A stretch of DNA of 64,000 bases from Thermoplasmata archaeon (GTDB lineage: Archaea; Thermoplasmatota; Thermoplasmata; RBG-16-68-12), in the NCBI GenBank assembly GCA_035283365.1, contig DATETY010000008.1, positions 1 to 64,000 on the forward strand, given 5' to 3'. This document shows positions 7,358 to 54,045 of this stretch, piece by piece. The notes below the pieces were generated by a model. That model searched no databases. It was not told the origin of the DNA and was given only the letters and a program-made list of their open reading frames with translations. The stretch's first letter is position 1. The number at the start of each line of letters is the position of its first letter. A program made the position numbers and the translations under genes.

Positions 7358-7367
7358 ACCGACCGAG

Positions 7368-9384: not shown

Positions 9385-9470
9385 CACAGGATTTTGGTGT
9401 ACATACTTAAAGGTTGTCGGTCCAGAACCATACAAATGATTGAAAACTTGATATGTTACCGAGACAATGT
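9385..9470. promoter_or_regulatory. AT-rich divergent control region between glnA and lrp
   Basis: Locally AT-rich: ggattttggtgtacatacttaaaggttgtcggtccagaaccatacaaatgattgaaaacttgatatgttacc. It sits in an otherwise GC-rich genome between divergent starts. TATA-like and palindromic A/T elements are present. Confidence 0.5.
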
Positions 9471-9565
9471 CCACCCCGCCCCGAGGGGCCTCCGTCCGGC
9501 TGGCGAACCGCCCGAGCGGGGGCGCAAGCGGCTTAAGGGATGACCCGATGCGCGGCGAGGCGACG

Positions 9566-10024: not shown

Positions 10025-10084
10025 CGCGGTCCGGCTTTCCAACATAACGTTTATCCACGTTCCCCGGCTTATCCACGGATAAGG

Positions 10085-36608: not shown

Positions 36609-36922
36609 GACGAGGAAGAGCGCGAGCCAGAACGTCGGAGTCGCCAGGATGAGGAACAGGCGGACGTTCCCCGTGCTACGGGTCAGACGGGCCAGGCGAC
36701 GCCCGATGCCTCCTCGGACCCCGCGCGACTCGACCGGCGGGCCCTCCTCCTTCCCCTGGGCCGTCCCGACGCCTCCCGCCCGGATTCACGAGAAAGGGGG
36801 TCCGGACTTTAATGGTTTGGATTTTGTGCCGCCCGCCGGGAGCTTCACCGGGAAGGAATCCTTATATCGGCACGACGGCGTAACGCATGCACGTGGCCGC
36901 GGCGCAGCGCCGCGCCTCATGG

Positions 36923-38590
36923 ATGTGGGCTTTCATGGCCGACCCGAACGCCCCCGGCGGCGGGATTCCGCGCCGCTCGTTCCTCAAGTATGCCGCCATC
37001 GGCGGGTTCGCAGCGTGGGGCGCCGCCTCCGCGTACGCGTACCCGATCGGCTGGCGCCGATGGATCGAGTACGGTCGGAAGCCGTGGGAGGTCGACCTCG
37101 GCGTCGTGGATTACGACCGCGTGCCCGACGCGGATGGCACGATGGACGCGGTGCCGCAGTACTACCTGACGGGACCGCCCGAGCGGAAGATCCTCAACGT
37201 GGCTCAGTGGTATGACTACTGGCCGGGGACCGTCGTCCGGGACTTCGCCACCTACATGGAGGACAAGTTCGGCCTTTCCGGCTGCGCGATCCGGTGGACC
37301 TCGAACATCTATACGTCCAACGAGGAACTCTTCACGTGGATCAGCCAGACGGGTCGGAAGTTCGACGTGATGGTGCCGACGAACTACACCGTGGAGACGA
37401 TGGACAAGGCGGGTTACCTCGTCAACCTCAACAGGGCGTGGCTCCCGAACTACGACGGGATGTTCGGCCTCCTACCCTCGGACGCGAAGATCGCGGAGAT
37501 CGAGAGCCGAATCTGGCGGCCCGAGTTTTACACGTGGGTGCCATCGTACCCGCGGTTCCCGAACGGGTACAACAACCACGCGGGGTACGACTTCCGCTCT
37601 CCGAATGCGAACGGCTACCAATACCGGATGAACGCGGCAACGTATCCGGACCCGCGGGGTACGGACTACATCACGTGGGACGAGCAAAACAGCCTCGTCG
37701 CGGTCCCGTACCAGTGGGGCACGACGGGGATTGGGTATCGGAGCGACGTGTTTGCCCGTGCCGACATCGAGGACCTCGGATGGGAGGTCTTTGAACTGAC
37801 GACGTACCGGAACAGCGTCACAGGCCAGACGTTCGACCTCACGAAGAAGAAGATGATGCTCGACGACATGCGGGAGGTCTTCACGGCGGCCCTCAAAGCG
37901 GTCGGGTGGAAACGGCAGGAGGCAGACGGGCTCACCCCGAGTGGCGTCGTCGGCTCGAACGGGCAGTACCAGTGGTCCAGCAACGCGCTCCCGCTTGACG
38001 AGGTCGACGCCGAGAAGGTCACCGCGGCCCAGGACTGGCTCCTGTCGTGGCGCGGCGGCGCGTGGGGATTCAACACGCCGCAGCAGGGACCCTGGCTCGT
38101 CTCGAAGCAGATGTACGTGGACCAGGCCTGGTCCGGGGACATCATGTACGCGGTCCGCCCCAACTCCTCCCAGTTCCTCCCCGTCGAGTACTTCGTCCCG
38201 AATCCAGGAGGGGCGCGCTGGATCGACAACATGGTCATCCACCGGGAGTCCGAGAAGCTCTGGCTCGCGCACCAGTTCATCAACTACATCCACGACCCCC
38301 TCGTCCAGGCGGACATCTCCACGTGGAACCTGTACGCAAGCCCGAACGCCTGGTCGTTCCAGCTACTCCATCAGGACACGTCGTACAGTTACACGGGGCT
38401 GAAGCCGGACGGGAGCCCGTATTACTTCAATCCCGCAGAGGACCACCGGATCTACGCGGACTTCGCGATCGGCTACGGGGACGACCCCGTCGCACAGCCT
38501 CCGATCTTGGAACGCTGCGAATACCAGAAGGACGTCGGCGTGAGGAACACGCTACGGTACCTCAGCTATTGGCGGGCCGTGAAGTTCTGA
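36923..38590 (+). CDS. potD: extracellular solute-binding protein, PotD-like, with a Tat signal
   Basis: Twin-arginine motif IPRRSFLKYAAIGG. PotD-like core KILNVAQWYDYWPGTVVRDFATYMEDKFG. Unusually long at about 550 aa. Confidence 0.7.
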   Translation: MWAFMADPNAPGGGIPRRSFLKYAAIGGFAAWGAASAYAYPIGWRRWIEYGRKPWEVDLGVVDYDRVPDADGTMDAVPQYYLTGPPERKILNVAQWYDYWPGTVVRDFATYMEDKFGLSGCAIRWTSNIYTSNEELFTWISQTGRKFDVMVPTNYTVETMDKAGYLVNLNRAWLPNYDGMFGLLPSDAKIAEIESRIWRPEFYTWVPSYPRFPNGYNNHAGYDFRSPNANGYQYRMNAATYPDPRGTDYITWDEQNSLVAVPYQWGTTGIGYRSDVFARADIEDLGWEVFELTTYRNSVTGQTFDLTKKKMMLDDMREVFTAALKAVGWKRQEADGLTPSGVVGSNGQYQWSSNALPLDEVDAEKVTAAQDWLLSWRGGAWGFNTPQQGPWLVSKQMYVDQAWSGDIMYAVRPNSSQFLPVEYFVPNPGGARWIDNMVIHRESEKLWLAHQFINYIHDPLVQADISTWNLYASPNAWSFQLLHQDTSYSYTGLKPDGSPYYFNPAEDHRIYADFAIGYGDDPVAQPPILERCEYQKDVGVRNTLRYLSYWRAVKF

Positions 38591-38603: not shown

Positions 38604-40721
38604 CTACCCGGTCGTCTCGGGCCCGAACTCGATGTACGGGAACCCTTCGAGCGGGAGGACGTTGTCCGCGACGCCCCAGGAGTGCGGCCCCGCGATCGAC
38701 ACGACGTTCGCCCGCGGATCGTACAGGTAGTAGTTCCCCGACGGCCGGATGAGGCGCAGCTCCAGATGGGACATGAACGTCACGTAGTCGCCGATCTTCT
38801 CCGTGGGGTTCCACACGGAGCGCACGGGGTCGTACCACGGCACCTCGAACCGGGGCATCACGAGGGTCAGGGTCGATCCCTCGGGGAGAGGCCATCGGTT
38901 CGGCGGGACGAGGAACTCGCTCGGCACGCCGTACGCGTAGCTGCCCGGGGCCAGGTGAACGTTATCCAAGCCGACATACCAGCGGAGCTCCGAGTTCGGG
39001 AAGCCGGAGGCGCCGTTGCTCCCGCTCGCGGAATGGGGCACGTAATCCATCAAGTACGGCTGGAACACCCACGCGGGCCGGTCGTCCGCGGTCCGCGCGA
39101 GCCCGTCGGGCCCGAGGTTCGCCCACGCCTCGAAGTGGTATCCCTGGTAGGCGACGAAGTCCAGGTCGAGGGCGTTCGTGATCCGCCCCTGGATCGTCGC
39201 ATGCTCGCACCAGCACGTCTCCATCGGGCTCCAGCCCGCCGGGCGGATCGCCCCGTACGGGAGAGTGGACGTGCACGGGATCGGGGGCGTCACGGTCTCC
39301 GTGTCCAGGCCCTGCTGGCACACGGCTCGCTGGTACGACGAATTGCCCCAGTAGAACCAGCGGGCCTGGAGGACGTCCCAGCCCCAGCCCGCCGTGAAGA
39401 TCTGGACCCTCGTCGTCCCGTCATCCTGGACGGTCGAGTTGAGCCACGTGAAGTCGACCTCGTAGAACCACTCGAACCCGTTGTAGATGTCGTACTTCCC
39501 GTTCCCCATCCGTTCCTGCCAGGACTGGAAGGCGGCCTCCGCGGCCCCCGGGTTCCTCGGGGACGCGTTCGTGTTCGCGTCCCACCACGTGCGGGCCTCC
39601 GTCGCGTTCGTCGCCTCGACCCCGAAGATCCGACGGGAGGTCGCGAGGTCCATCGTGTAGTTGCCTCGGAGGACGTACCCGAAACCGTCCGCGTAGTACT
39701 TTCGGTTCACGGAGAAGGGGGTCGTGCGCAGCTCGTTCGCGAGGGCGGAGTCGAGGTACTCCATCGAGAGATCGAAGTCCACGTAGCCGTTCGGGTCCAC
39801 GGGCTCTCCGTAGTCGGCCACGGGGAGGATCACGGGCTCCGAGATGTTGTAGGCCCCGTGGTTCCGCACCTTGGCGTCCCAGCGGTACAGCGTGTACACG
39901 TACGACGGGTTGATCGCCTGGAATTCGACGTCCGCGGAGAACAAGACCCACGGGTAGTAGTCCGTGCACGGTACGGTGTTCAGGAGGACCTGGTCCCCGT
40001 ACGTGTTGTACCGGGCGTTCCAGTAGTCCTCGTACGGGCAGCCCGCTTCGAAGTACTGGTCCGTCACGATGTCGACCGTGGTGCTCGCAGGGCTCACGTA
40101 GCGGGACGTGGTGGCGCTCCGGCTGAGGCTGTCCGTGACCTCGAGGGTCACGATGCGCCGCCCCGCACTCGCATACGTGTGCGCGACCTCCGCGCCGCTC
40201 GCGTTCCCGCCGTCGCCGAAGTCCCACTCGTACGAGACGATGTTCCGACCGAGCGCATGGTACGAACCCGTCGCGTTGAACGTGACCGTGAAGCGGTCAT
40301 GCCGGGCGATGAAGTGGGGCACCGGGACGACCGTGATGGTCAGGGCCTGCGTCGTGGACCCCGCGGCGCCTCGGGTGTCCGCGACGGTCAGGGTCACCTG
40401 GAACGGGCCCTCGTCTGCGTACGTGTGGGACGCCTGCCGCCCTTGCCCCGTCTCGCCGTCGCCCCAATCCCAGGCATACGAGGCGACCGCCCCCTCCGGA
40501 TCGGAGGAGTTGCCCCCGTCCGCGATCACGCGCAAGTCCTTGAGGCGCATCGTGAACGCGGCGGCCGGCGGGTTGTTCGGCGCGGCGAGCAGGATCCACG
40601 CCCCCACGCCGCCCGCGATCACGACGGCCGCGACGACGATGAGGAGCAGGAGCGGCCGCCGTTTCCCAGGAGCCGCCGGCTCGATCCCGCCTGGAGCGAC
40701 CGACCCGGGTTCCGACGCCAT
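38604..40721 (-). CDS. surface protein: N-terminal TM anchor, two PKD domains and a large unrecognised Trp/Tyr/Asn-rich domain (paralog 1 of 4)
   Basis: ATG at 40721 after GGGGAGG. TM LLLLIVVAAVVIAGGVGAWILLAA. PKD motifs SYAWDWGDG and SYEWDFGDG. The C-terminal domain carries NGKYDIYNGFEWFY and TAGWGWDVLQARWFYWGN. Many N-x-S/T sequons. Confidence 0.8.
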   Translation of the reverse strand: MASEPGSVAPGGIEPAAPGKRRPLLLLIVVAAVVIAGGVGAWILLAAPNNPPAAAFTMRLKDLRVIADGGNSSDPEGAVASYAWDWGDGETGQGRQASHTYADEGPFQVTLTVADTRGAAGSTTQALTITVVPVPHFIARHDRFTVTFNATGSYHALGRNIVSYEWDFGDGGNASGAEVAHTYASAGRRIVTLEVTDSLSRSATTSRYVSPASTTVDIVTDQYFEAGCPYEDYWNARYNTYGDQVLLNTVPCTDYYPWVLFSADVEFQAINPSYVYTLYRWDAKVRNHGAYNISEPVILPVADYGEPVDPNGYVDFDLSMEYLDSALANELRTTPFSVNRKYYADGFGYVLRGNYTMDLATSRRIFGVEATNATEARTWWDANTNASPRNPGAAEAAFQSWQERMGNGKYDIYNGFEWFYEVDFTWLNSTVQDDGTTRVQIFTAGWGWDVLQARWFYWGNSSYQRAVCQQGLDTETVTPPIPCTSTLPYGAIRPAGWSPMETCWCEHATIQGRITNALDLDFVAYQGYHFEAWANLGPDGLARTADDRPAWVFQPYLMDYVPHSASGSNGASGFPNSELRWYVGLDNVHLAPGSYAYGVPSEFLVPPNRWPLPEGSTLTLVMPRFEVPWYDPVRSVWNPTEKIGDYVTFMSHLELRLIRPSGNYYLYDPRANVVSIAGPHSWGVADNVLPLEGFPYIEFGPETTG

Positions 40722-40870
40722 GGTACGCCTCCCCTACCTCTGTCAACGCGAGTGGACGCTCCGCGGGTGACGCGCGGGACCGCGCGCTCCGCGGAGGCCC
40801 GAAGCGCATCTGAACGTAGCTCGCCGCGGCCTGGCCGCGTCGCGTGCCTCGGCCTTCCGATATCCCACGC

Positions 40871-43507
40871 TCATCCCGCCCAGTGCCTATCGGTCTCGAC
40901 CCGAATGGGAACGACCGCCAGGTCCAAGGCCTGCCCCGGTCCGCGAGATACGCGCCAACTGGCCTCCACACCGGCGGATCCGGCCGAAGGCGCGGATGCA
41001 GGGGGTGCGCCGGCGCCGCTGCCCGGCTCGAACGTGATTCCGCCCCACGGTACGAGCGCGTAGTCGTCATCCGCGGTCCCGGGCACCCCGTCGGGTCCGG
41101 GAGACCCCGTCGGACCGTTCGTCGGGTCCGGCCCGATCACGGTCCACGTGTTCGTCGCGGCGGCCCACGCCCCGAACGACGTGGGGGTCGTACTCGAGTA
41201 GGTGAGGGGCGCCCGCAGTTCGACGTACTCCCCGGCCAGCGGATCTGCGCCGATCGGCGTGTCGTTCGGCTCGTAGAAGACGACGTTCGCGGTGGGGAAC
41301 TCGAACCGCCACGTCTGACCCGCGTCGAGGTCCCACGCGATCGGGACGTAGTCGTACGGCTTGTCCTGACCGTACGGGACCCCGCCCGGCGTCGAGTGGG
41401 TGTACGAGTAGTTCGCATCGGGGTACCGCTCGAGCTCCGTGAACGGGCCGACGGGCGCGCCGACCTCCGCGTAGTCCGTGAGGATCGGTCCCCACGACCA
41501 CACGGGGATGTCGTCCACCTGGTCGAAGCCGTTCTGGTTCGGGAGAACCGTGTGCTGCCAGTGGTACTGCATCGCGGAATCCAGGGTGAAGTTGAACCCG
41601 CTCGCGCCCATGTCGCCCGACATGACGAGGTCCTCGAACCACGCGAGCTCCATCCCCCACCACCCGGCGGCCTTCGTCGAGTCGAGGTAGTTGTCCGCGT
41701 ACGAGGCGTTGCCCCAGTAGAACATCCGCGCGAGGAGGACCTCCGTCCCCCAGGCAGCGTGCTCGATGGAGACGTGCGTGGTCCCGTCCAGGTCGACCGT
41801 CGCCGAGATGTTCGTCCAGAACGGGCTGTAGAAGTATTCGAAGCTGTTGTAGATGTCGTACTTCCCGTTCCCGAGGTCGAAGAACCAGTCCTCCACGGAT
41901 ATCTCGAACGACGTCTCGGGGATGCACACGCCGTTCAAGGCGGTCGCCCACCACGCCGTGGCAGTCGCCGGGTCCACCGCGACGACGCCGAACATGCGCC
42001 TGGACTGTTGCAGATCCATCGTCAGGTTGATCCACGCCTGGATCTCGAACCCGTCCCGCGTATTGATGTTGTTCGGCGCGGGGCAGCCGGCCGCGCGCCG
42101 CGCCAGGGCCGCCGAGTGCGTGAGGTACTGCAGCTGCAGGTCGAAGTCGAGGCGGGACCCGGGCGCCTGGCCGTACTCCAGGACGGGCAGGAACACGGGC
42201 TCGGAGCGGTTGTAGCCGCCCACGTTCATCCCAGTCGCGTTGAACCGATACGGGGCGTAGATCATCGGGTTGTTGTTCGGGTTCCCGGGCTGGAACGATC
42301 CGGGCAGCGGGTACCAGTTCGTGTACGGGAACGCGGAGGTGTCGTTCACGTTCGGATCGGTCGGCCCGCAGAGGCCGTCTGCGATCGACTCGGGGCTGAA
42401 GCACTCCGCGTTGATCGGGAGGTCGCCGTACGTGCCTGTCCGCATGTCCCACCACTCCCCGTACGGCACGTTGAAGAAGTCGTAGTACTCGTAGTCGAGC
42501 GTCGACGCCGCGGCGGTCACGACGGCGGTCGCGTTTCCCGTGTTGCCGAGCGAATCCGTGACCCGCAGTCGAATCGTGTACCGGCCCGCGGCCGAATACG
42601 TGTGCGTCGCGGTCGGCGATGCGCCGGTCGCCTCGAACGTCCCGTCGTTCTGGAAGTCCCATGCGTACGTCGCGATGTCGTTCTCCGGGTCCGTCGAGGC
42701 GCTCGCGTTCACGTCGACGCGGAGCAAGGTCCGGGTCGCGTCGAACCGCGCGGTGGGAGCGCCTGGAGCCGGCTCGACGTCCACCGTGACGCTCCCGGTA
42801 ATCGTCGTCGCGATCGTGTCGCGCACGGTGATCGTGACGCTGCCGATCGTCCGGAGGACGACGTTCGAGAACGTCCGGACGCCTGAATCCCCGGCCACGA
42901 ACGCGGTGTTCGGAGGCAGGGTCGCGAGTGCATCGTCCGAGCTGAACGTGGCGGTCCCCGTGTAGCCCGTCGCGTCCGCGACCCCTTTCTTCGCGCGGAC
43001 GGTCAGCGTGATCGGCGTGCTCTCGACCGGGGTCGTGTCCGACGCGGTCACCTGGAACTGGACCGCCTCAATCGTAATCTCGGCGGAGTCGTTCCGGCTC
43101 GCGGAGCCGAGGGTCGCCGTAACGGTCACGTTCACGACGCCGGCCTCGATGGCCCGCACGTCCGCGCGCGAGTCGTCGGCCTGGGGCGTGACCTGGGCCC
43201 GCGAGGTGGGAGCCCGGGACCATGCGAACGCGACGTCCGCCGTGCGATCCGCGCCCGCCGTATCGTACGCGCGGGCGGTCACGGTGAGCTGACTGCCCTG
43301 GTCCATCGTCTGGGCCGCGGTGAGCTCGACCCGGTCGAGGGTCGGGGCGGCAGGGGGCGCGGAAAGGAGCACGAAGGCGACGCCGCCGATGAGCGCGACG
43401 ACGAGCACGGCCACGATAACGAGCGCGACGACCTTCCGGCTGCCCGTCGCCGGTCCCGCGGGCGCGGGCGCGGGTGCAGGCGCGGGCGGAATCTCCCCTT
43501 GAGCCAC
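40871..43507 (-). CDS. surface protein: TM anchor, Ig-like repeats, one PKD domain and the shared unrecognised domain (paralog 2)
   Basis: Start re-called as GTG at 43507, preceded by GGAGAGGGGG and a TATTTATAC box at 43558..43570. The 240-nt upstream extension in the ORF track is Arg-rich filler. Motifs YYDFFNVPYGEWWD, GNGKYDIYNSFEYFY, AWGTEVLLARMFYWGN, GWWGME. Confidence 0.75.
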   Translation of the reverse strand: MAQGEIPPAPAPAPAPAGPATGSRKVVALVIVAVLVVALIGGVAFVLLSAPPAAPTLDRVELTAAQTMDQGSQLTVTARAYDTAGADRTADVAFAWSRAPTSRAQVTPQADDSRADVRAIEAGVVNVTVTATLGSASRNDSAEITIEAVQFQVTASDTTPVESTPITLTVRAKKGVADATGYTGTATFSSDDALATLPPNTAFVAGDSGVRTFSNVVLRTIGSVTITVRDTIATTITGSVTVDVEPAPGAPTARFDATRTLLRVDVNASASTDPENDIATYAWDFQNDGTFEATGASPTATHTYSAAGRYTIRLRVTDSLGNTGNATAVVTAAASTLDYEYYDFFNVPYGEWWDMRTGTYGDLPINAECFSPESIADGLCGPTDPNVNDTSAFPYTNWYPLPGSFQPGNPNNNPMIYAPYRFNATGMNVGGYNRSEPVFLPVLEYGQAPGSRLDFDLQLQYLTHSAALARRAAGCPAPNNINTRDGFEIQAWINLTMDLQQSRRMFGVVAVDPATATAWWATALNGVCIPETSFEISVEDWFFDLGNGKYDIYNSFEYFYSPFWTNISATVDLDGTTHVSIEHAAWGTEVLLARMFYWGNASYADNYLDSTKAAGWWGMELAWFEDLVMSGDMGASGFNFTLDSAMQYHWQHTVLPNQNGFDQVDDIPVWSWGPILTDYAEVGAPVGPFTELERYPDANYSYTHSTPGGVPYGQDKPYDYVPIAWDLDAGQTWRFEFPTANVVFYEPNDTPIGADPLAGEYVELRAPLTYSSTTPTSFGAWAAATNTWTVIGPDPTNGPTGSPGPDGVPGTADDDYALVPWGGITFEPGSGAGAPPASAPSAGSAGVEASWRVSRGPGQALDLAVVPIRVETDRHWAG

Positions 43508-43607
43508 AGTCCCCCTCTCCCATGGTGTCGAATGGGCGGGGTCTGTAAGGCGCAGGGCGTATAAATAGTCAAACGCGCACGGTCGGACGAGGGCCGAACG
43601 GAATCCC

Positions 43608-43665
43608 TTTTCATCAATCTGATGAAAACGGAAAGGGGGAAGGGGCGTCGCCCTTCCCTTTGTGC
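43608..43665 (-). terminator. perfect palindrome plus GC hairpin and T-rich tract downstream of the paralog-3 stop
   Basis: TTTTCATCAATCTGATGAAAA (9-bp arms) at 43608..43628. Imperfect GC hairpin gggaaggggcg-tcg-cccttccc at 43632..43662. On the minus strand the hairpin is followed by CCTTTCCGTTTTCATC. Confidence 0.45.
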
Positions 43666-43667
43666 GG

Positions 43668-46244
43668 CTACTCGGGCCGGGACGAGGACGCAACGGCCGC
43701 AGCCGGGCCCGGCGGGCCAGCCGAGACCGCGGACGTCGCCGGCTCACCGGAGGCGGGTGTCGACGCGGACGGCGTGTATGTGCCGACCACCGGCGTCAAG
43801 GCGCCCTCGGTCACGGTGACGATCTGCGCCGCGGGGGTGTTGTAGCCCGCGACCGGTTCGAACTGGACCCGGTACGTCCCGGGCCGCATGGACTGCCACA
43901 TGCCCCAGTCGTTCCGGGCCATGCCATCCACGAAGACGGTCGCCGCCAGGGCGGGGTCGGTCGTCACGCGCAGCGAACCGTGCCGGACGAAGATGCCGTC
44001 GTACACGGTCGTATCCATCGCGCGCACCTCGCGGATCACGGGCGCAGGCGGCTCGAGGCCGTACACGGTCGTGAACGAGATCGTGTACATGCCGGGCGCG
44101 AGCTTGACCCATGTGAGGCCCCACTGGTCCCGCGGCACGCCGTCCACGTTGATCACGGCCGGCGAGGCGGGGTTCGTCGTCGCGCGGAGCAGGCCGAACG
44201 AGGACGGGTCGGGCCCCGGGGCTCCCGGGGTCGCGGTGAAGGGACCTGGCACGTGCCGGAACTCTCCCGGCGCCAGGGTCACCGTGATCGGGGCCGGGGG
44301 CGTGAAGCCCGCCACGAGGCCGAACGAGATCGTGTACGTCCCCGCTGGCAAGGCGGACCACATCCCCCAGTCGTTCCTCGGGATGCCGTTCAGGGAGATC
44401 GTCGACGGCACGGCGGGCTCCGTCGTGACGCGGAGAGACGCGTGGATCGCGTACGTCCCCTCGACCACGGTGGTCTGGCCGCGCTGGATGTTGATCGGCT
44501 GAGGCGCCGGCGCGCCGAGTCCCACGAGCTCGCCGAACGACACCGTGTGCGGTCCGGGGGCCATCTTGACCCACGTGAGGCCCCACTCGTCCCGCGGCAC
44601 GCCGTCCACGTAGATCTTCGTCGGGACCGCCGGGTTCGTCGTCGCCCGGAGGAGACCCGTCCCGGGGCTGAAGCGGATTGCGCCCTGCTCGAAGAGCGGA
44701 TAGTTGCCCGGGGAGCCGGGGAGCCCGCCCGTCGTCGTCGGGCCCGTCAACGTCCACATCCCGGCGATGGGGTCCCAGCTGCCGTACATCCCGGGGGTCG
44801 TCGAGTGGTACGTGAGCGGCGCCCGGATCTCCACGAACGCGCCCGTCGTCGGGTCGGACCCGAGGGGCGTCAGGTTCGGATCGTAGTAGACCACGTCCGT
44901 CGTGGGGAACGTGAACCGGAGCGTCTCGTAGTCCTGCAGGTCCCACGTGATCGGGACGAAATCATAGCACACGTTCTGGCCGTACAGGGGGCTGCCCGGG
45001 ACCGCCTTGAGATACTCCGTGTCGTCCGCGTTGCACGGCGTCCCGTCGGGGCCCACGTACCGGTCCAGCTCGGACACCAGGTGCTTCGGGCTCCAGTCGT
45101 TCGTGTAGTCCGTCAGGATCGGGCCCCACGTCCAGAACGGGATGTCGTCGACCCGGTCGAAGCCGTTCGCGGCGGGGAACGTGCTCAGCTGGAAGTGGTA
45201 CTGCATGATCGAGCTCAGGGAGAAGTCGTGATCCGCGGTGCCGAAGGAACCGGCGAACACGAAGTCCTCGAACCATCCGAGCTCCATCCCCCACCACCCC
45301 TGGCGCTGGGAGGAATCGAGGTAGTTCGCGGCATATGTCGCGGCTCCCCAGTAGAACCAGCGAGCGAGGAGGACCTCCGTCCCCCAGGCCACATGGTCGA
45401 TCGTGACGGTCGTCACGCCGCTGTCTGCCACGGAGGCGGTCATCTGCGTGTAGAACGAGTAGTAGTAGTACTCGAAGCTGTTCGCGATGTCGTACGGGCC
45501 GACCGAGTTCGCGGGGCCGCCCTGGGATACGAACCAGCCGCCGACAGCGGCCTCGGCTCCGCCTTCAGAGAGGCAGGCGGGGTCGATACCCGTCGTGGCG
45601 CTCGACCACCAGGATCGTGCGCCTGCGGCCGTCGTGATCGCGGGATTCACACCGAAGATGCGCTTCGACTCCTGCAGGTCGAGGGTCACCGTGATCTGTG
45701 ACCGGATGTTGAAGCCGTCGAGAGAACGCCCGGACACGGGGCAACCGAGGGCCGCGAGGGCGTCTGCCTGGGCGCGCGTCAGGTACTGCATGCGCCAGTC
45801 GAAGTCGAGCTGCGTCCCCGCAGCCGCGGCCGGGTTGAGCACGGGGAAGTACACGGGCTGCGCGAGGCTGTACCCGGGGATCTCCGTGCCTGCCACGCTG
45901 AACCGGTAGGGTGCGTAGACGAACGGGTTGTTCCCGGGGCCGCCAGGCCGGATCGAGCCGGGGGCGGGATACCAGTTCGTGTACGGATACTGGGACGGGT
46001 TCGCGCACGTCGTCGGCGCGAAGCACAACGCATTGATCGGGAGATCGCCGTACTTATCGTTCCGGTAGTCCCACCACTCCCCGAACGGCACGTCGAAGAA
46101 GTCCCGGTACTCGAACGAGAGGCTCGGCGTCTGCATCGGGTCCGGCGGGGATGTAGAAGACGCGGCCAGGCTGGCGCGCGAGGGCGCGAAGGCCAACACG
46201 GCGTATGCGCTCGCGGCGACGATCAAGCTCACAGCGAGTCCCAC
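43668..46244 (-). CDS. secreted protein: signal peptide, the shared unrecognised domain at the N-terminus, then four PEGA-like repeats (paralog 3)
   Basis: GTG at 46244. Signal peptide MGLAVSLIVAASAYAVLAFAPSRA. Motifs EYRDFFDVPFGEWWDY, YDIANSFEYYYYSF, AWGTEVLLARWFYWG. C-terminus has four repeats of about 75 aa (LRATTNPAVPTKIYVDGVPRDEWGLTWVKMAPGPHTVSFGELVGL...). Confidence 0.8.
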   Translation of the reverse strand: MGLAVSLIVAASAYAVLAFAPSRASLAASSTSPPDPMQTPSLSFEYRDFFDVPFGEWWDYRNDKYGDLPINALCFAPTTCANPSQYPYTNWYPAPGSIRPGGPGNNPFVYAPYRFSVAGTEIPGYSLAQPVYFPVLNPAAAAGTQLDFDWRMQYLTRAQADALAALGCPVSGRSLDGFNIRSQITVTLDLQESKRIFGVNPAITTAAGARSWWSSATTGIDPACLSEGGAEAAVGGWFVSQGGPANSVGPYDIANSFEYYYYSFYTQMTASVADSGVTTVTIDHVAWGTEVLLARWFYWGAATYAANYLDSSQRQGWWGMELGWFEDFVFAGSFGTADHDFSLSSIMQYHFQLSTFPAANGFDRVDDIPFWTWGPILTDYTNDWSPKHLVSELDRYVGPDGTPCNADDTEYLKAVPGSPLYGQNVCYDFVPITWDLQDYETLRFTFPTTDVVYYDPNLTPLGSDPTTGAFVEIRAPLTYHSTTPGMYGSWDPIAGMWTLTGPTTTGGLPGSPGNYPLFEQGAIRFSPGTGLLRATTNPAVPTKIYVDGVPRDEWGLTWVKMAPGPHTVSFGELVGLGAPAPQPINIQRGQTTVVEGTYAIHASLRVTTEPAVPSTISLNGIPRNDWGMWSALPAGTYTISFGLVAGFTPPAPITVTLAPGEFRHVPGPFTATPGAPGPDPSSFGLLRATTNPASPAVINVDGVPRDQWGLTWVKLAPGMYTISFTTVYGLEPPAPVIREVRAMDTTVYDGIFVRHGSLRVTTDPALAATVFVDGMARNDWGMWQSMRPGTYRVQFEPVAGYNTPAAQIVTVTEGALTPVVGTYTPSASTPASGEPATSAVSAGPPGPAAAVASSSRPE

Positions 46245-46427
46245 GAGGACCCTTCGACTCGAAACGGAAATCGTACTACCCCCTCCCCGGTCCCACGCAC
46301 AACAGGAAGCAATGACGGAGTGCCGGGATTGGACTTAAGGTTATCTCACAGTACCAGAGACGATAACGAGGGGCCGCGGAAGCCGGATCGGATCCGTGAG
46401 CGCATCGCGGTGGCCGGCCGTCGTCGC

Positions 46428-49400
46428 TCACGGGGTGAATCGCACGCTCGGATACGGCTCCGCGGGATATCCGCCGCTCGGCGTCCCGATCGGGCCGCCC
46501 GTCGTCATGGGGCCGTACACGCGCCAGGTCCCGCTCGCGGCGTCCCACGTTCCGATGGACCCGGGGAACGTGGCTGCGAACCGCAGGGGCACCGCCGTCT
46601 GCACGTACTCCCCTGCGACGGGATCCGCCCCAATCGGCGTCGTGTTCGGATCGTGGAAAGCGACCGCGCCGGTCGGGAAGCGGAACAGCCACGTGTGACC
46701 CGCGGGCAGGTTCCAAGTTGCGGGGACGTAGTCGTATGGAGCCAGGATCGCGTACTGCTGCGACCCGGGGGTGCTGTGCGTGTACGTCCCGTCGGGGTAC
46801 CGATTCAACTCCGAAGCCGTGTGCTCGATCGGGTTGTTCGGGCCTGCGATGATGTCCGCGAGGGAGGCTCCCCACGACCACCGAGGCACGTCCCCCACGC
46901 GGTTCAGGGTGCCGTCCACGCCGGGGAGCGCGTCCTCCCGCATGTGGTACGGCACGACGGCGTCGAGGGCGAAGTCCATCGATGTGGACACTAGCGTGCC
47001 GCGGAACGCGATCCCCTCGAGGGCCCGCGGCTCCATGCCCCACCAGCCCGCGCGGCGGGAGGAGTCCAGGTGGTTGTCCCGGTACGACGCCGCGCCCCAG
47101 TGGAACCAGCGAGCGAGGAGGACGTCCGTGCCCCACGCCGCGTGATCGATCACGAGGGTCGTGACCCCGTCCGAGCCGACCGTCGCGGTGAACGCCGTGT
47201 AGAACGGCGAGTACCACCAGCCGAACCCGTTCATCACGTCGTACACGCCGATCATCGTGGAGCTCCCGCCCTGCTGGACCATGAAATCCTGCCACGCGGT
47301 CTCGGCGGCTCCGCGGGCTGCGCACCCCGCGGCGATGCTCGAAGACCACCAGGACCGGGCTGCGTTCGCGTCCGCGCCGACGACACCGAACAGCCGGCGG
47401 GACTCCTGCAGGTCCATCCGGAGGGTGACGAGAGAGCGCACGACGAAGCCGTCCAGGTCGAGCCGCCCGATCGGGCAGCCCGCGCCGGACAGCGAGTCCA
47501 CGAGGGCCGTGTCGACGTATTGCGCTCGCCAGTCGAACTCCAAGAGGGTGCCGGGCGCCTGGGCCGGCTCGCGGACGGGTAGGAACACAGGGGAGCCGAG
47601 CGAGTACCCGGGCACCTGGTCTCCCGCGGCGCGGACCCGGTACGGAGCGAACACCTGGGCATTCGTCGCGACGTCGTACGGCTCCGTCCCACCCGGGGTC
47701 GGGTACCAGCCCGTGTACGGGTACGCCGCGACATCGGGCACGCCGGATGCGGAGGCGACGCACACCCCGTTCGCAATCGCGGTCGCGTTGAAACACTCGG
47801 CCTCCATGGGGAGGTCTCCCCAGGTCGGAGTCCGGTAGTCCCACCACTCCCCGTACGGCACGTTGAAGAAGTCATAGAACTCGAGGTCGAGGGTCCACGG
47901 CCCGACCGAGACGACCTGCGACGCAGTCGATGTGAGGCCTCCGCCGTCCGTGATCGTGAGGGTGATCGTGTACGCACCGGGGGTCCCGTACCCGTGACTC
48001 GCGGTCCGACCGGATCCCGTCGTCCCGTCACCCCAGACCCACGCGTATCCGACGATCGTGCCCTCCGGGTCCGTGGAGACAGATGCGTCCACGGAAGCGG
48101 TCATGAGGGCGCGCGAGAGTGTGAAACCGGCCGTCGGAGGCCGGTTCTCCCCACGGACGGGCACGACCCGGGACGCGCTCCCCGTCAGGCCGTCCGAATC
48201 CGTCACGGTGAGGGTCACCGTGTAGTTCCCTCCGCCCAAGTAGATATGCGTGGCGCTGACCCCGCTGCCGGTCCGCGTGTCGCCGAAGTCCCACGCGTAC
48301 GAAACGATCGTCCCGTCCGCGTCCGACGAGCCCGCACCGTTGAAGTTCACGTTCTGCCCGCTCGAGGGAGACGCGGGGTCGAACGTGAACGACGCGGAGG
48401 GCGGGGACACGACCCGGACCGACTTGGACGCAGACGAGGTGAACCCGTCCGAATCGGTCACCTGGAGGACGACCGTGTACGTGCCGTGCAGGTCGTACGT
48501 GTGGGTCGCGGTGGGGCTCGTGAGCGCCGCCGACGTCGTGCCGTCGCCCCACGTCCAGCGGTACGTCGCGATCGTGCCGTCCGGGTCGTTCGAAGCCGAT
48601 CCGTCGAACGTCGCGGGTTGTCCGCGGACAGGCGAGGCCGGCGTCACGACGAATGAAGCGATCGGCGAGGCGTGGATCCGGACCGTCTTCGACGTCTCAC
48701 CCGTGAAGCCGTCGGCGTCCGTGACTCGGAGCGTCACGACGTACGATCCGAACTGGGCGAACGTGTGCGCCGCCGTCGCCGCCGCGGACGGCCCCGTCGT
48801 GGTCCCGTCGCCCCACGTCCAGCGGTACGTTGCGACCGTGCCGTCCGGATCGGAGGAGCTCGAACCGTCGAACGACACGGACGTCCCTGCGAGGGGTTTC
48901 GCGGGGGCGAACGAGAACGCGGCCGCGGGGACCGCGTGGATCCGCACGGATGTAGTCGTCGAGGCGGAGAACCCGTCCGAATCAACGACCGTCAGCCGGA
49001 CGGCGTACGTGCCGTATGCCGCGTACGTGTGCGCGCGCGTGGAGCCCGTCCCTGTCCCACCATCCCCGAAGTCCCAGGCGTACGATGCGATCGTTCCGTC
49101 TGGGTCCGTCGAGGCGGACCCGTCGAACGAGACGGACTGGCCCGCCAGGGGTTTCGCGGGTGTGAACGTGAACGAGGGGCTCGGGGGCGCGTAGATCCGG
49201 ACGGACCGGGTTGTGCTCGCGGTGAGGCCATCGGAGTCCGTCACGGTCAGCGTGACCGTGTACGTGCCGTACGCGGCGTACGGATGGGAGGCCGTCCGAC
49301 CCGTCCCGATCCCTCCATCGCCGAAGGCCCACGCGTACGACGAGACCGTGCCGTCCGGATCGGACGAGGCGGACGCGTCGAACGCGACTGCTTGGCCCGT

Positions 49401-52400
49401 GAGCGGCTTCGCGGGGCTCGTCGTGAAGCTCGCGACGGGTCGCGCAAGGATCCGCACGTTCGTCGTGATCGTGCCCGTGAACCCGTCCCCGTCCGTGACC
49501 GTGAGCCGGACCGCGTATGTGCCGTAGCGGGCAAACGTGTGGGCCGCGGTCGCCGACGAAGACGGGCCCGACATCGTGCCGTCTCCCCAGTCCCAAGCGA
49601 AGGACACGACGGCCCCATCCGGGTCCGTCGACCCGGAGGCGTCGAAGGAGACGGACGCCCCTTCGAGCGGCCCCGCCGGGCTGTACACGAACGCGGCCGT
49701 CGGCGGGGCGTAGATGCGCACCGCGCGAGACGTGGTCCCCGTGACGCCCTCGTTGTCCGTCACGGTCAGCGTGACCGTGAACGTCCCGTGGCTCGCGTAC
49801 GCATGGCTGACCGTGCGGCCCGTCCCCTGGATCCCGTCCCCGAACGTCCACGCGTACGACGAGACCGCGCCGTCCGGATCGGACGAGGCGGACGCGTCGA
49901 ACGCGACGGACTGGCCCCGGAGCGGCTTCGCGGGGAGGTACGAGAAGGACGCGATGGGGCGGCCCAGGATCCGAACGGAGAGGGAGGTGCTTCCGGTCAG
50001 GCCGTCCGAATCGGACACGGTGAGCGACACGACGTACGTCCCATAGCCCGCGTACGTGTGCCCGAGCACGCGGCCGCTGCCCGTCGTGCCATCGCCGAAC
50101 GTCCAGGCGTACGAGACGATCGTGCCGTCCGGGTCGGAGGAGGCGGACGCGTCGAACGTGGCGGCCTGGCCCTCGACCGGCTTCGGCGGCGAGAACGTGA
50201 AGCTCGCGCCGGGCCGAGCGAGGACGCGCACGGTCCGCGATAGCGTCCCGGTGAGCCCGTCGTTCCCCGTCACGGTGAGCCGCACGGTGAACGAACCGTG
50301 CGTCGCGTACGCGTGCGTCGCAAGGCGGCCCGACCCGGAGGCCCCGTCCCCGAAATCCCACGCGTACGAGGCGATCGAGCTGTCCGGGTCGCTCGACGCG
50401 GACGCGTCGAACGAGACGACGGTCCCGGGGAGGGGGCCCGATGGAGCGAACGTGAAATCGGCCGTCGGTGGGGCGAAGACGGTCACGCGCTCGAAGGCCT
50501 CTGCGACGAGGCCGTCCGCGTCCGTGACTAGCAGGGACACGCGGTACGTGCCGTGCATCGGGTACGCGTGGCCCGCAGTCCGCCCGGTCCCCGATGACCC
50601 GTCCCCGAAGTCCCACGCGTACGAGGCGATCGGCCCGTCCGGATCGGACGAGGGGGACGCGTCGAACGAGACCATGTCCCCCACCTTCGGACTGAGCGGG
50701 GTGAACGTGAACCCGGCGGAAGGGGCCGCGAGGACCCGGACCGTCTTCGTGATCCGAGCGGTCAGCGCGTCGCTGTCCGTGACCGTGAGCGCGACCGTGT
50801 ACGACCCGTACGAGACATACGCGTGGGCGGCGATGCGGCCGGATCCCGTCGTCCCATCGCCGAAAACCCACGCGTACGAGACGATCGAGCCGTCGGGGTC
50901 CCGGGAAGCGGACGCGTCGAATGTGATCGTCTGGTCCGCGAGCGGGACCGCCGGGGAGAAGCCGAAATCCGCGATGGGCGCCGCGCGGACGCGGAGGGAC
51001 CTCGACGCGGCGGCCCACTCGCCGTCGTTGTCCGTCACCGTCAGCGTGATCATGTACGTCCCGGCGACCGCGAACGTCCGGCTCCAGGTCGACGCGGTCC
51101 CCGAACCGCCGTCGCTGGACGACCACGCGTACGACGCGATGGTCCCGTCCGGATCGTACGTGGCCCGCCCATCGAACGCGACGGGCTGGCCGGCGAGCGG
51201 GCTCTCGGGGGCGATCGTGAACGTGACGACGGGCGGGATGGGGACGTAGGGGGCCACGACGACGGACCGGGTCAGGGACGCCCGGAGGCCGTCCGAGTCC
51301 GTGACGGTCAGGGACACGGCGAACGTGCCGTCCTGCGCATACGTGTGCGTGACGACGACGCCCGAGGCCTGTCCCCCGTCCCCGAAGGCCCACTCATACG
51401 CGACCACGGTCCCGTCCGGGTCCGTGGTGGCCGACGCGTCGAACGTGACGGCCTTCCGGGCGGTCGGGTCCGCCGGGGTGTACGTGAACGAGGGCACGGG
51501 CGGCGCCCGGACGCGGACGGACTTCGACGCGCTGCTCGAGAACCCGTCGCTCGCCGTCACGCGCAGCAGGACGGAATAGGTCCCCGCGGTCCCGAAGGCG
51601 TGGGACGTGATCCGGCCCGACCCGCTCGTGCCGTCCCCGAAGTCCCACGCGTACGAGACGATGGCGCTGTCCGGGTCCTGGGACGCGGAAGCGTCGAACG
51701 TGACGGGCGCGGCCACGACGGGGTCCGCGGGGCTGAAGGCGAAATCGGCTGTGGGGCCCGCGAACACGGAGATCCGGGCGGAGGCGTCCGACGCGAGACC
51801 GTCTGCATCCGTCACGCGGAGCTCGGCGCGGTACGTCCCATGGAGAGCGTACACGTGCGTCGTGAGCGGGCTCGTGACCGTGGACGTCGTCCCGTCCCCC
51901 CACGTCCATGCGTACGTGAGGGCCGTGCCGTCCGGGTCCCGCGATGCGGATGCGTCGAACGCGACCGGGTCCCCGCTCCGCGGGACCAGCGGCGAGAACG
52001 TGAACGAGGCGGACGGGGCGATCGCGATGCGCACGATCTTGGAGACCGACGCGGTCCTCGAGGAATCGTCCCGAACCGTGAGCGTGACCGTGAACGAGCC
52101 GTGCGTCGCATACGCATGCAAGGCGATCTGACCGCTCCCGGTCGACCCATCCCCGAACGTCCACGCGTACGACACGATGGCCCCGTCGTCGCGCGAGCCC
52201 GATGCGTCGAAGGTGACCGGCTCCCCGACGACCGGGAGCGCGGGGGAGAACGCGAAGGCGGGCTTCGGAGGCTGGCCGGCCCGTGGGACCAAGTCCGCCG
52301 AGCCGTCGCCGGAGTGCCCGTCGGACGAAACGAAGGATTGCGCACACGTCGCCCAGGCCCCGGGCCGGCCGATCGGCGTGAGCGCGGCCCAGTACTCGAG

Positions 52401-52736
52401 GCCCGCCGCGACGGGGATGCCCTCGAATCGTGCCGGACTGAGTGTCGCGAGACCGAACGAGATCCGTTCCGAATGAATCGGGGCACCGCCCGGGTCCGTG
52501 CTCTCGAATATGTCGAGGCCCATCCCGACGAGGCCATGGCTCTCGAAGGAGAGGGACCACGTCCCGGCGCGGTCCGGCACGAACCCAAAGGCGCGCGCGT
52601 CCCCGCGGGGATCCGACTCGAACGAGCGGGTCACGCGACACATCGACGCATCGACCGGCGGGTCCGCGCTCGCCGCGACGAAGACGCCGGACGCGATGAG
52701 GACGGCGGCCGCCACGGCGAACGTCCTGGGACCCAC
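46428..52736 (-). CDS. giant secreted protein (2102 aa): signal peptide, about 17 tandem PKD domains, then the shared unrecognised C-terminal domain (paralog 4)
   Basis: GTG at 52736. Signal peptide MGPRTFAVAAAVLIASGVFVAASA. Seventeen repeats of the PKD core (V.FDASAS.DPDG.I.SYAW.FGDG). C-terminus FYDFFNVPYGEWWDYR...AWGTDVLLARWFHWG. Confidence 0.85.
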   Translation of the reverse strand: MGPRTFAVAAAVLIASGVFVAASADPPVDASMCRVTRSFESDPRGDARAFGFVPDRAGTWSLSFESHGLVGMGLDIFESTDPGGAPIHSERISFGLATLSPARFEGIPVAAGLEYWAALTPIGRPGAWATCAQSFVSSDGHSGDGSADLVPRAGQPPKPAFAFSPALPVVGEPVTFDASGSRDDGAIVSYAWTFGDGSTGSGQIALHAYATHGSFTVTLTVRDDSSRTASVSKIVRIAIAPSASFTFSPLVPRSGDPVAFDASASRDPDGTALTYAWTWGDGTTSTVTSPLTTHVYALHGTYRAELRVTDADGLASDASARISVFAGPTADFAFSPADPVVAAPVTFDASASQDPDSAIVSYAWDFGDGTSGSGRITSHAFGTAGTYSVLLRVTASDGFSSSASKSVRVRAPPVPSFTYTPADPTARKAVTFDASATTDPDGTVVAYEWAFGDGGQASGVVVTHTYAQDGTFAVSLTVTDSDGLRASLTRSVVVAPYVPIPPVVTFTIAPESPLAGQPVAFDGRATYDPDGTIASYAWSSSDGGSGTASTWSRTFAVAGTYMITLTVTDNDGEWAAASRSLRVRAAPIADFGFSPAVPLADQTITFDASASRDPDGSIVSYAWVFGDGTTGSGRIAAHAYVSYGSYTVALTVTDSDALTARITKTVRVLAAPSAGFTFTPLSPKVGDMVSFDASPSSDPDGPIASYAWDFGDGSSGTGRTAGHAYPMHGTYRVSLLVTDADGLVAEAFERVTVFAPPTADFTFAPSGPLPGTVVSFDASASSDPDSSIASYAWDFGDGASGSGRLATHAYATHGSFTVRLTVTGNDGLTGTLSRTVRVLARPGASFTFSPPKPVEGQAATFDASASSDPDGTIVSYAWTFGDGTTGSGRVLGHTYAGYGTYVVSLTVSDSDGLTGSTSLSVRILGRPIASFSYLPAKPLRGQSVAFDASASSDPDGAVSSYAWTFGDGIQGTGRTVSHAYASHGTFTVTLTVTDNEGVTGTTSRAVRIYAPPTAAFVYSPAGPLEGASVSFDASGSTDPDGAVVSFAWDWGDGTMSGPSSSATAAHTFARYGTYAVRLTVTDGDGFTGTITTNVRILARPVASFTTSPAKPLTGQAVAFDASASSDPDGTVSSYAWAFGDGGIGTGRTASHPYAAYGTYTVTLTVTDSDGLTASTTRSVRIYAPPSPSFTFTPAKPLAGQSVSFDGSASTDPDGTIASYAWDFGDGGTGTGSTRAHTYAAYGTYAVRLTVVDSDGFSASTTTSVRIHAVPAAAFSFAPAKPLAGTSVSFDGSSSSDPDGTVATYRWTWGDGTTTGPSAAATAAHTFAQFGSYVVTLRVTDADGFTGETSKTVRIHASPIASFVVTPASPVRGQPATFDGSASNDPDGTIATYRWTWGDGTTSAALTSPTATHTYDLHGTYTVVLQVTDSDGFTSSASKSVRVVSPPSASFTFDPASPSSGQNVNFNGAGSSDADGTIVSYAWDFGDTRTGSGVSATHIYLGGGNYTVTLTVTDSDGLTGSASRVVPVRGENRPPTAGFTLSRALMTASVDASVSTDPEGTIVGYAWVWGDGTTGSGRTASHGYGTPGAYTITLTITDGGGLTSTASQVVSVGPWTLDLEFYDFFNVPYGEWWDYRTPTWGDLPMEAECFNATAIANGVCVASASGVPDVAAYPYTGWYPTPGGTEPYDVATNAQVFAPYRVRAAGDQVPGYSLGSPVFLPVREPAQAPGTLLEFDWRAQYVDTALVDSLSGAGCPIGRLDLDGFVVRSLVTLRMDLQESRRLFGVVGADANAARSWWSSSIAAGCAARGAAETAWQDFMVQQGGSSTMIGVYDVMNGFGWWYSPFYTAFTATVGSDGVTTLVIDHAAWGTDVLLARWFHWGAASYRDNHLDSSRRAGWWGMEPRALEGIAFRGTLVSTSMDFALDAVVPYHMREDALPGVDGTLNRVGDVPRWSWGASLADIIAGPNNPIEHTASELNRYPDGTYTHSTPGSQQYAILAPYDYVPATWNLPAGHTWLFRFPTGAVAFHDPNTTPIGADPVAGEYVQTAVPLRFAATFPGSIGTWDAASGTWRVYGPMTTGGPIGTPSGGYPAEPYPSVRFTP
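48254..52214 (-). repeat. tandem coding repeats of about 255-260 bp (the PKD-domain array)
   Basis: About 17 consecutive PKD units. The DNA is visibly repetitive (recurring gacccggacgg...tacgcgtgggacttcggggacgg cores). Confidence 0.8.
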
Positions 52737-52863: not shown

Positions 52864-54045
52864 TCAGCCGAGGGATCGCGTTTCCTCGGCTTGCTCGACG
52901 ACCCGGATCGCCCGATCCCGGGCGCTCAGTTCGCGGAAGTACGGGAGCGGGTCCAGCGCGACCTCGGGCGGGATCGTCCCGCGGCGCTTCACTTTTCCCT
53001 GGAGGATCCACTGGGCCGCGATGGACGGCGGGACTCCCGTGTCCACGACGCCCCCTCCGACGTTCCACCGCTTGTGAGGCCATGTGACCGCCTCGTACCG
53101 GAGGGTCATCGTGTGGCCGTCCTTCGCGCCGATCACGACCGCGCGCTGGATGTCCACATCGAGCTCGGGTTCCTTGGGTTTCGGCAGGGCGTCGATGGCG
53201 GTCGATGTGACGTCGTACGGGCGGACCTTCGAGCCGTCGACCTCGATCGGGTCGCGGCTCGCGAGGCCGAGGCGCACGAGGGTCGCGACGGTCTGCGTGA
53301 ACGCGGGCGGGAAGGCGACGATGAAATCGAGTTCCCGGAGGCCCTTCCCGATCGTCTTGGGCATCGTGGCGAGCTCCGAGTGGATCGTGTAATATCCCTC
53401 CACGACCCCGACGGGTGGGGCGAACTCGGAGCGCTCGAGCCCCGACAGGGCCGGGACGAACCGGAGTTTCCCGTCTCGCAGGACCGGCGCGTCCATGGAG
53501 AACTCGTCGAAGATCGTGCGGATCGCGTACGGCGGCACGAACTTATCCGGCTCTCCGCCCGAGACGACGGCCCCGCTGCTCCGGAGCTCGATCTTCTCCA
53601 CCCGGTCGAGACGGCTCGCGCCGTAGGCCGCCATCACGTTCATCGTGCCGGGCGTCGACCCGATCCCCAGGAGACACGTGACCCCGGCGTCCTTCGCCAT
53701 CTTGTCGCGCTTCATCTGCTCGAGGGTCTGGTGGAACAGGCCGCCCAGGTCGATGTAGTGGACGCCCGCCTGAATCGCAGCCTCCATGATCGGGACGTTC
53801 ATGTCGTACCAAGTGCTGTTGATGACGGCCCCCCAGCCCTTGAGGGCCTTCACGAGGGCCGGGCGGTCGCGCGCGTCGATCCCGAGGGGGACCGCGCGGT
53901 CGTCCCGGAATCGCTTCGCGAACGACTTCGCCCTCGGGAGGCTGCGCCCGGCGATCCCGACCCGCTCCACGCCGGGGCTTTCGAGCAGGTCCGGGACCGT
54001 CGACTGGGCCATCGCTCCGTATCCGCCGAGCACGAGGACTTCCAT
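52864..54045 (-). CDS. saccharopine-dehydrogenase-family NAD(P)-binding protein
   Basis: MEVLVLGGYGAMAQ Rossmann start. ATG at 54045 after GGGGGAGG. The long in-frame upstream extension in the ORF track is Arg-rich and overlaps the MFS gene. Confidence 0.75.
   Translation of the reverse strand: MEVLVLGGYGAMAQSTVPDLLESPGVERVGIAGRSLPRAKSFAKRFRDDRAVPLGIDARDRPALVKALKGWGAVINSTWYDMNVPIMEAAIQAGVHYIDLGGLFHQTLEQMKRDKMAKDAGVTCLLGIGSTPGTMNVMAAYGASRLDRVEKIELRSSGAVVSGGEPDKFVPPYAIRTIFDEFSMDAPVLRDGKLRFVPALSGLERSEFAPPVGVVEGYYTIHSELATMPKTIGKGLRELDFIVAFPPAFTQTVATLVRLGLASRDPIEVDGSKVRPYDVTSTAIDALPKPKEPELDVDIQRAVVIGAKDGHTMTLRYEAVTWPHKRWNVGGGVVDTGVPPSIAAQWILQGKVKRRGTIPPEVALDPLPYFRELSARDRAIRVVEQAEETRSLG

Follow-up and report, generated by a model that had tools for sequence, protein, structure and literature searches.

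Surface proteins with PKD repeats (PF00801/PF18911) combine an export signal with a tandem stalk of PKD or Ig-like modules whose number varies between paralogues, and secreted hydrolases of archaea and bacteria often carry PKD modules. Thermoplasmatota, an archaeal phylum abundant in soils, sediments and aquifers, are mostly without cultured representatives, and their cell covering and substrate acquisition are largely unknown. Here, we describe four minus-strand genes, with the working names p1 to p4 in order of ascending coordinate, in a 64-kb stretch of the genome of a Thermoplasmata archaeon (contig DATETY010000008.1 of assembly GCA_035283365.1, positions 1 to 64,000; hereafter, the window). 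Their products are built like the PKD-repeat proteins, but the end domain that all four share, which we call the head, is no known catalytic, binding or surface-layer (S-layer) domain and has no relative in Pfam, NCBIfam or PDB. What is new is the head itself, carried on otherwise familiar modular archaeal surface proteins, and its genomic link to ATP-binding cassette (ABC) importers.

The shared head domain

The initial annotation of the window proposed that the four proteins share one large Trp/Tyr-rich domain, and BLASTP and multiple alignment confirmed such a domain of ~490 amino acids (aa). The heads of p2, p3 and p4 are 46-49% identical to one another over ~500 aa (E 1e-134 to 1e-164), and the p1 head is ~30% identical to each of these (E 1e-36 to 1e-70); the four-way alignment has ~100 invariant columns. 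Aromatic residues are abundant throughout (W 4%, Y 5-8%, F 4.5-6%). The head is C-terminal in p1, p2 and p4 and directly follows the signal peptide in p3. Eight motif strings had been quoted as blocks common to the paralogues: all eight occur in p2 and six in p3, but only two in p4 and none in p1, and they represent essentially the p2/p3 consensus rather than blocks of all four.

Neither Pfam-A 2025 nor NCBIfam 20.0 recognized the heads of p1 to p4, even at E<=10 (the best match, pYEATS at 10 bits, is noise), and seven distant head copies likewise matched nothing in these two libraries. A profile of close copies (alignment A1) had 0 matches to PDB sequences at E<=10, and the best match of a profile of distant copies (A3) in the same sequences, at E 0.2, was an unrelated viral protein. 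The p2 head was modelled with AlphaFold2 from a 49-sequence alignment; the model is very confident (pLDDT 94.1, pTM 0.93) and of mixed alpha/beta structure, and the head is accordingly described as a compact ~490-aa alpha/beta domain with conserved Trp, Tyr, Asp, Glu and Arg. No fold similar to this model was found in BFVD. The head matches nothing among the libraries searched (Pfam, NCBIfam, PDB and BFVD). The initial annotation had considered the domain assignable to no family and proposed the search for a confident profile match as the test; Pfam, NCBIfam, PDB profiles and Foldseek found nothing of the kind. The head is by these searches a new domain, and probably a new fold.

When PDB was searched with the p2 head model, Foldseek ranked the FMO bacteriochlorophyll a protein (PDB 3eoj, 6mez) first, at E 3e-3, with one third of the head aligned at 6% identity and TM-scores of 0.18-0.23, which is below significance. 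We rejected homology to FMO, and pigment binding of the FMO kind, on the grounds of this low identity, the partial and sub-threshold overlap, the absence of a Pfam match (BChl_A) and the Thermoplasmatota hosts. FMO proteins have a full 'taco-shell' fold with pigment-binding residues and belong to green sulfur or chloracidobacterial hosts, whereas the proteins described here are extracellular, come from non-photosynthetic archaea and have no sequence relationship to it. The match is an analogue at most, and probably a partial structural one in which long beta strands and helices are arranged alike.

Conservation was assessed on 244 near-complete head copies from the whole family. Among these, 33 positions are conserved in at least 85% of the copies, and P437, W670 and D678 (p2 numbering) are present in 244 of 244. 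The polar conserved positions are D343, R356, R421, D485, D551, R594, E625, D678 and S690. Orthologues are 45-68% identical, and those of the p2 type have four invariant Cys, which is consistent with an extracellular location. The phylum-wide sequence conservation exceeds what would be expected of a purely structural coat protein.

Modular architecture, gene arrays and phyletic distribution

The four open reading frames (ORFs) were found head to tail, exactly where the initial annotation had placed them (Table 1). All four are also present on a related 112-kb metagenomic contig (L001; L and P numbers denote loci and proteins of relatives), with 95.5-97.7% protein identity and dN/dS values of 0.25 (p4), 0.19 (p3), 0.16 (p2) and 0.16 (p1); these are real genes kept by purifying selection. 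The array, with a GC content of 0.66-0.72, is compositionally undistinguished from the rest of the window (~69% GC overall). The description of the products as giant fits p4 (2102 aa) but not p1, p2 or p3.

A signal peptide or transmembrane (TM) segment had been predicted for each protein, and all four do begin with a hydrophobic segment. In p1 (residues 19-49) and p2 (18-55) it is long and TM-like; in p3 and p4 it is short and resembles a signal peptide (residues 2-26 in p4). None of the four has a C-terminal TM or hydrophobic segment, and none shows the PGF-CTERM or C-terminal TM anchor that serves as an S-layer criterion. The public gene call of the p2 orthologue on L001 (P0001, 847 aa) begins within the membrane helix ('VAVLVVALIGG...'); the upstream GTG at window position 43507, which yields 878 aa, gives a complete anchor, so that the public start is probably too short.

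The stalks differ from one paralogue to the next. Pfam agreed with the PKD counts of the initial annotation: PF00801/PF18911 exceeded the gathering score in two stretches of p1 (115.7 bits), one of p2 (55 bits), 17 of p4 (1086.6 bits) and none of p3, and these matches concern the accessory modules only, not the head. In the full-length AlphaFold2 model of p2, a TM helix is followed by an all-beta region (residues 55-335, pLDDT 84-93), which makes the proposed combination of Ig-like repeats and one PKD domain reasonable, with two Ig-like modules. The four PEGA-like repeats proposed for p3 were borne out as four self-aligning ~75-aa repeats; as to their family, the C-terminus of p3 drew no Pfam match up to E<=10, PF08308 (PEGA) and PF13620 included. 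A homologous module that is 59% identical to that of p3, in the relative P0023, carries a precomputed match to PF13620 (CarboxypepD_reg). In another relative (P0002), a four-repeat module of the p3 type is N-terminal, whereas it is C-terminal in p3, which indicates that modules have been shuffled. The N-terminal 169 aa of p4 have no Pfam match; they include ~140 aa between the signal peptide and the first PKD domain (residues ~27-165, window 52230-52650) that may be a further uncharacterized module.

These results support a modular extracytoplasmic family organized around the head, as had been suggested. By their export signals, p1 to p4 are extracytoplasmic proteins with one head each on PKD, Ig-like or transthyretin-like stalks, p1 and p2 being tethered to the membrane. 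The statement that they are packed with N-x-S/T sequons applies to half of them: p1 (9 observed, 4.3±1.9 expected) and p2 (13 and 6.0±2.2) have about twice the shuffled expectation, but p3 (1 and 3.9) and p4 (3 and 4.6) are at or below it.

Table 1. Coordinates of the array genes, their modules, regulatory elements and flanking genes in the window
Feature	Position	Strand	Description
p1 gene	38604..40721	-	705 aa; N-terminal TM anchor, two PKD, divergent head at C-terminus
p1 head copy	38607..40070	-	residues 218-705; BLASTP, alignment, HMM envelope
p2 gene	40871..43507	-	878 aa; N-terminal TM anchor, two Ig-like beta modules, one PKD, head, low-complexity tail
p2 head copy	41003..42502	-	residues 336-835; copy used for modelling
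p2 stalk	42518..43345	-	two Ig-like modules (residues 55-249) and one PKD (250-330)
TTTATA box	43560..43565	-	-58 relative to p2 start; sole clear TATA-like element in array
Two hairpins and T-rich tract	43608..43667	-	directly after p3 stop; terminator-like; RNA fold -21.5 kcal/mol, z -2.9
p3 gene	43668..46244	-	858 aa; signal peptide, head, four ~75-aa beta repeats, Ser/Thr/Pro-rich tail
p3 four tandem ~75-aa repeats	43731..44654	-	transthyretin/CarboxypepD_reg-like; repeat alignment
p3 head copy	44655..46124	-	residues 41-530; BLASTP, alignment, HMM envelope
p4 gene	46428..52736	-	2102 aa; signal-peptide-like N-terminus, ~140-aa unassigned region, 17 PKD, C-terminal head
p4 head copy	46428..47921	-	residues ~1606-2102; stop codon included in range
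p4 stalk, 17 PKD	47904..52244	-	residues ~165-1611; Pfam PF18911/PF00801
Fused PotB/PotC-type ABC permease	34737..36608	-	NCBIfam; Pfam BPD_transp_1 on orthologue
Pot-like solute-binding protein	36887..38590	+	567 aa, RRxFLK Tat-like signal; NCBIfam PotF/PotD partial matches
Saccharopine-dehydrogenase-family gene	52864..54045	-	directly upstream of p4, same strand

Searched against 5.8 billion proteins, the p2 head returned 95 relatives, and a profile of distant copies added 60. A scan of one genome per GTDB species with alignment A1, which detects closer relatives only, found 21 loci. A further search of 1.84 billion representatives used an alignment (A2) in which the first ~70 profile positions are a PKD module; PKD proteins swell its counts (7864 at E<=1e-3, 414 at E<=1e-30), which are no measure of family size, and only matches covering the head were kept. 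Nearly all named sources are metagenome-assembled genomes (MAGs), labelled Thermoplasmata, Thermoplasmatota, 'Methanobacteriota', Euryarchaeota RBG_16_67_27 or RBG_19FT_COMBO, or Methanomassiliicoccales; two short contigs binned outside the phylum are probably mis-binned. The relatives in the searched collections include no cultured organism and bear no functional name. The protein, profile and GTDB searches uphold the description of the family as lineage-specific, and by these sequence matches it is restricted to the single archaeal phylum Thermoplasmatota. No relative occurs among the viral contigs of IMG/VR, and a viral or proviral origin was discarded on this ground and for want of a similar fold in BFVD. 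Full-text literature searches found no description of the head family; a paper on Angelo-soil Thermoplasmata MAGs that carry it is silent on surface, PKD and S-layer proteins.

Family genes usually stand in tandem, in co-oriented arrays of two to four. A 2.3-Mb contig encoding ~56% identical proteins has a syntenic three-gene array (864, 1108 and 709 aa) with the same genes on either side, and a second locus on it holds at least two more family members. When the heads were clustered by neighbour-joining, the p1 type formed a deep monophyletic clade and was always the last gene of its array, and p2, p3 and p4 each cluster with orthologues from other genomes. The initial annotation saw in the array a family duplicated in place; because each of the four genes groups with orthologues elsewhere, and a relative holds the syntenic three-gene array, a recent local expansion is ruled out. 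Rather, the array is by these comparisons an old, maintained arrangement with turnover, in which the paralogues are old and their order is kept.

More distant Thermoplasmatota encode proteins of 1400-2300 aa in which the head occurs twice (33 of a fetched set of 232 proteins), and the N- and C-terminal copies fall into separate clades, although few two-copy proteins are in the tree. These proteins and the conserved gene pair, another type followed by the p1 type, suggest that two unlike head copies probably work together as one unit.

For each gene of the array, an AT-rich or TATA-like element of its own had been proposed, with four independent promoters. These are not visible: a clear TATA box precedes p2 alone. 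In the p4-p3 spacer, the AT patch at -104 upstream of p3 is weak, and the regions upstream of p1 and p4 (73-77% GC) contain no AT element, only purine tracts resembling Shine-Dalgarno sequences, among them a GGAGG 7 nucleotides (nt) before the ATG of p1. We infer that p2 and p1, and perhaps p4 and p3, are co-transcribed.

Importer genes beside and within the family

In the window, the gene of a Pot-like solute-binding protein (SBP) lies tail-to-tail with p1 across a 13-nt gap, and this adjacency is kept in all syntenic relatives. A PotA-type ATPase follows the fused PotB/PotC permease, both in the window array and in the syntenic relatives. None of the window proteins matches SBP_bac_5 (PF00496). 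That family appears at other loci, together with Opp-type permeases. At two of them (L026 and L012), a family gene, SBP_bac_5, OppB and OppC lie on one strand with gaps of ~3 nt, and L026 includes another family gene; at two more (L027 and L029), a two-copy member and an SBP5-OppB-OppC operon are divergently oriented. At L030, an SBP5-OppBC operon lies ~4 kb from the member, with insertion-sequence genes in between. The OppC-type permease at this last locus (positions 1860-3647, 595 aa) is fused to two PKD domains, and extracellular Ig-like modules are unusual on a permease.

In four proteins, SBP and head are parts of one chain. Two consecutive ORFs at L021 (L021a and L021b, positions 1-6258 and 6221-10192) as well as P0163 and P0206 encode, in order, a signal peptide, SBP_bac_5, PKD, one or two heads, PKD and a TM segment with an Arg-rich tail. 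P0163 and P0206 have the same architecture as the L021 proteins at 44-65% identity, and an independent annotation pipeline predicted P0163 as a single gene of 2110 aa. The L021 and P0163 fusions end in 'SGFIPEFG', a hydrophobic helix and an Arg-rich tail (RRRR); this C-terminus looks like a PEF-CTERM-type archaeosortase sorting signal, and the window proteins have no such signal. By our own grouping, an ABC link is seen in about half of ~12 independent contexts, as a raw count.

Other neighbours recur as well. The saccharopine-dehydrogenase-family gene next to p4 also stands beside the array in L023 (8539-9720), L003, L017 and L032 (5442-6620), and near the member in L030; in L032 the adjacency is kept beside a distant, ~30% identical, family member. 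Its match to carboxynorspermidine synthase is weak (46-50 bits against a cut-off of 800). The part of L001 that continues the 34737-38590 region of the window (L001 14825-22544) encodes an aldehyde dehydrogenase and a class-III aminotransferase, and arginase and eIF5A are neighbours at L025 and L031. Together with the Pot-type transporter, whose 567-aa binding protein is unusually long, these genes hint at polyamine or amino-acid amine metabolism; such a link was noted and not adopted, as it rests on synteny and could be coincidence.

At L028, the gene directly upstream of a family member (7058-7906) encodes 282 aa that comprise a plastocyanin-like copper-binding domain and a PKD domain, and the member P0055 is named 'plastocyanin' by its source. 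At L031, in a Thermoplasmatota genome of 1.7 Mb, a single-domain member has a clostripain-type (Peptidase_C11) gene (4537-5751) 1.2 kb upstream of it. Away from the array, the window encodes a tRNA-Pro(UGG) at 1646-1738 on the minus strand, whose length of 93 nt implies an intron, in keeping with an archaeal source; on a third tRNA, near 476-662, Rfam and ARAGORN disagree.

Possible roles and comparison with known systems

The operon positions, the SBP fusions, the display of the head on the ends of stalks that vary in length and the conserved acidic and aromatic residues together suggest a role in substrate uptake. We favour this reading tentatively and with somewhat less than even confidence: the displayed head would bind or process an external substrate and work with binding-protein-dependent ABC importers. 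Under such a scheme, two unlike head copies would form the working unit; the head would bind or cleave its substrate, either a polymer that yields oligomers or a small cationic or peptide ligand, and would hand it to SBP-dependent importers; and the varied stalks would set how far from the membrane the head is held. A more specific version is doubtful as a whole, namely that the head is an unseen fold for extracellular substrate capture or cleavage, physically coupled to ABC binding proteins (in one chain in some lineages, through separate anchored and secreted partners here), with paired unlike heads as the unit.

Several observations weigh against a role in uptake. No ABC genes lie within 7-10 kb of the members at L013, L025, L028, L031 and L032. 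The window transporter is convergent with the array and therefore not co-transcribed with it, and belongs with polyamine rather than oligomer transporters. Gene order can outlast any functional coupling in related genomes, and the co-localization with importers consists of raw counts. Among the conserved positions of the 244 copies are neither an invariant His/Cys/Ser triad nor a metal motif; a site for catalysis or binding was not identified, the model coordinates not having been inspected; and none of the relatives found is fused to a recognized enzyme or carbohydrate-binding module. Finally, p3 and p4 have no evident anchor and may therefore be released.

The pairing of unlike heads and the position of the head in the fusions, pedestal-like between membrane anchor and SBP, could also be those of a structural envelope protein, which we consider rather unlikely. 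Heads would then pack side by side, possibly as hetero-oligomers of the p1 type with another type, in an S-layer or an unordered exterior protein layer, and SBPs would be fused or co-encoded only because they are held within the coat. Several abundant-looking paralogues per genome, with p1 and p2 anchored and p3 and p4 as secreted partners, would suit such a layer. The wall-less Thermoplasmatales have a ~20-nm exterior protein layer of unknown composition, to which this reading would connect, and no recognizable S-layer genes (PMC12448462). Yet our searches of relatives found the family only in uncultured lineages, not in the Thermoplasmatales studied by electron cryo-tomography. In addition, p1 to p4 match no S-layer family in Pfam or NCBIfam, a head on a 17-PKD stalk is unlike a lattice subunit, the phylum-wide sequence conservation is high for a coat protein, and sequons are not enriched in p3 and p4.

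An adhesin function is unlikely, even though a head on a stalk of PKD and Ig-like repeats, with 0 to 17 modules, is what an adhesin might look like: the head would bind a surface (a mineral, a plant or microbial polymer, or another cell), the stalks would set its reach, and the transporters would be inherited gene order. The aromatic-rich conserved residues, if read as surface, the shuffling of modules between family members and the soil and sediment origin of the hosts (from record titles), where attachment matters, would all agree with this. Adhesin heads usually diversify quickly, however, whereas these orthologues keep 45-68% identity and phylum-wide invariant residues, and neither the SBP_bac_5 fusion nor the position inside Opp operons would be explained.

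Archaeal Opp-family importers often carry oligosaccharides as well as peptides, and such importers adjoin some members of the family. A new family of extracellular hydrolases (glycosidases or peptidases) with acid catalysis, an enzymatic special case of the substrate-uptake reading, would fit these neighbours, the PKD modules, the clostripain-type peptidase gene near one member, the aromatic residues and the near-invariant Asp and Glu residues, with D678 in every copy, but is improbable, as searches of PDB, Pfam and NCBIfam found no fold or sequence similarity to known hydrolases, the conserved acids may be structural or ion-binding, and no member is fused to a recognized carbohydrate-binding module.

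The family is large, phylum-restricted and confidently modelled, but its members are labelled 'hypothetical' or 'PKD domain-containing' in the source records examined, because the annotation libraries tested do not see the head. The head merits a new domain-family entry and, being well defined, lends itself to structure determination and to screens for ligands. Should it prove structural instead, it would be a candidate for the unidentified surface coat of the phylum; should the importer link be functional, it would constitute a new extracellular step in archaeal nutrient uptake.

Among described systems, archaeal S-layer and stalk pairs such as SlaA and SlaB of Sulfolobales are similar: there, too, different extracellular proteins are encoded together and one of the two is anchored in the membrane, and the pair of another type followed by the p1 type could possibly form a hetero-complex of this kind. 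The present pair differs in that both partners share a homologous head, that there are many paralogues per genome and that S-layer matches are lacking. The SusE, SusF and SGBP proteins of Bacteroidota are alike in logic, not by homology: these, too, are lineage-specific surface proteins with Ig-like modules and a ligand-handling domain (putative in our case), encoded beside an import system and present as several paralogues. They belong to another domain of life, serve a TonB-dependent transporter where an ABC transporter is found here, and show no sequence or fold similarity to the head proteins. If the substrate-uptake reading is true, Thermoplasmatota would have their own system to catch and import substrates at the cell surface, with a logic analogous to that of the bacterial Sus-like systems.

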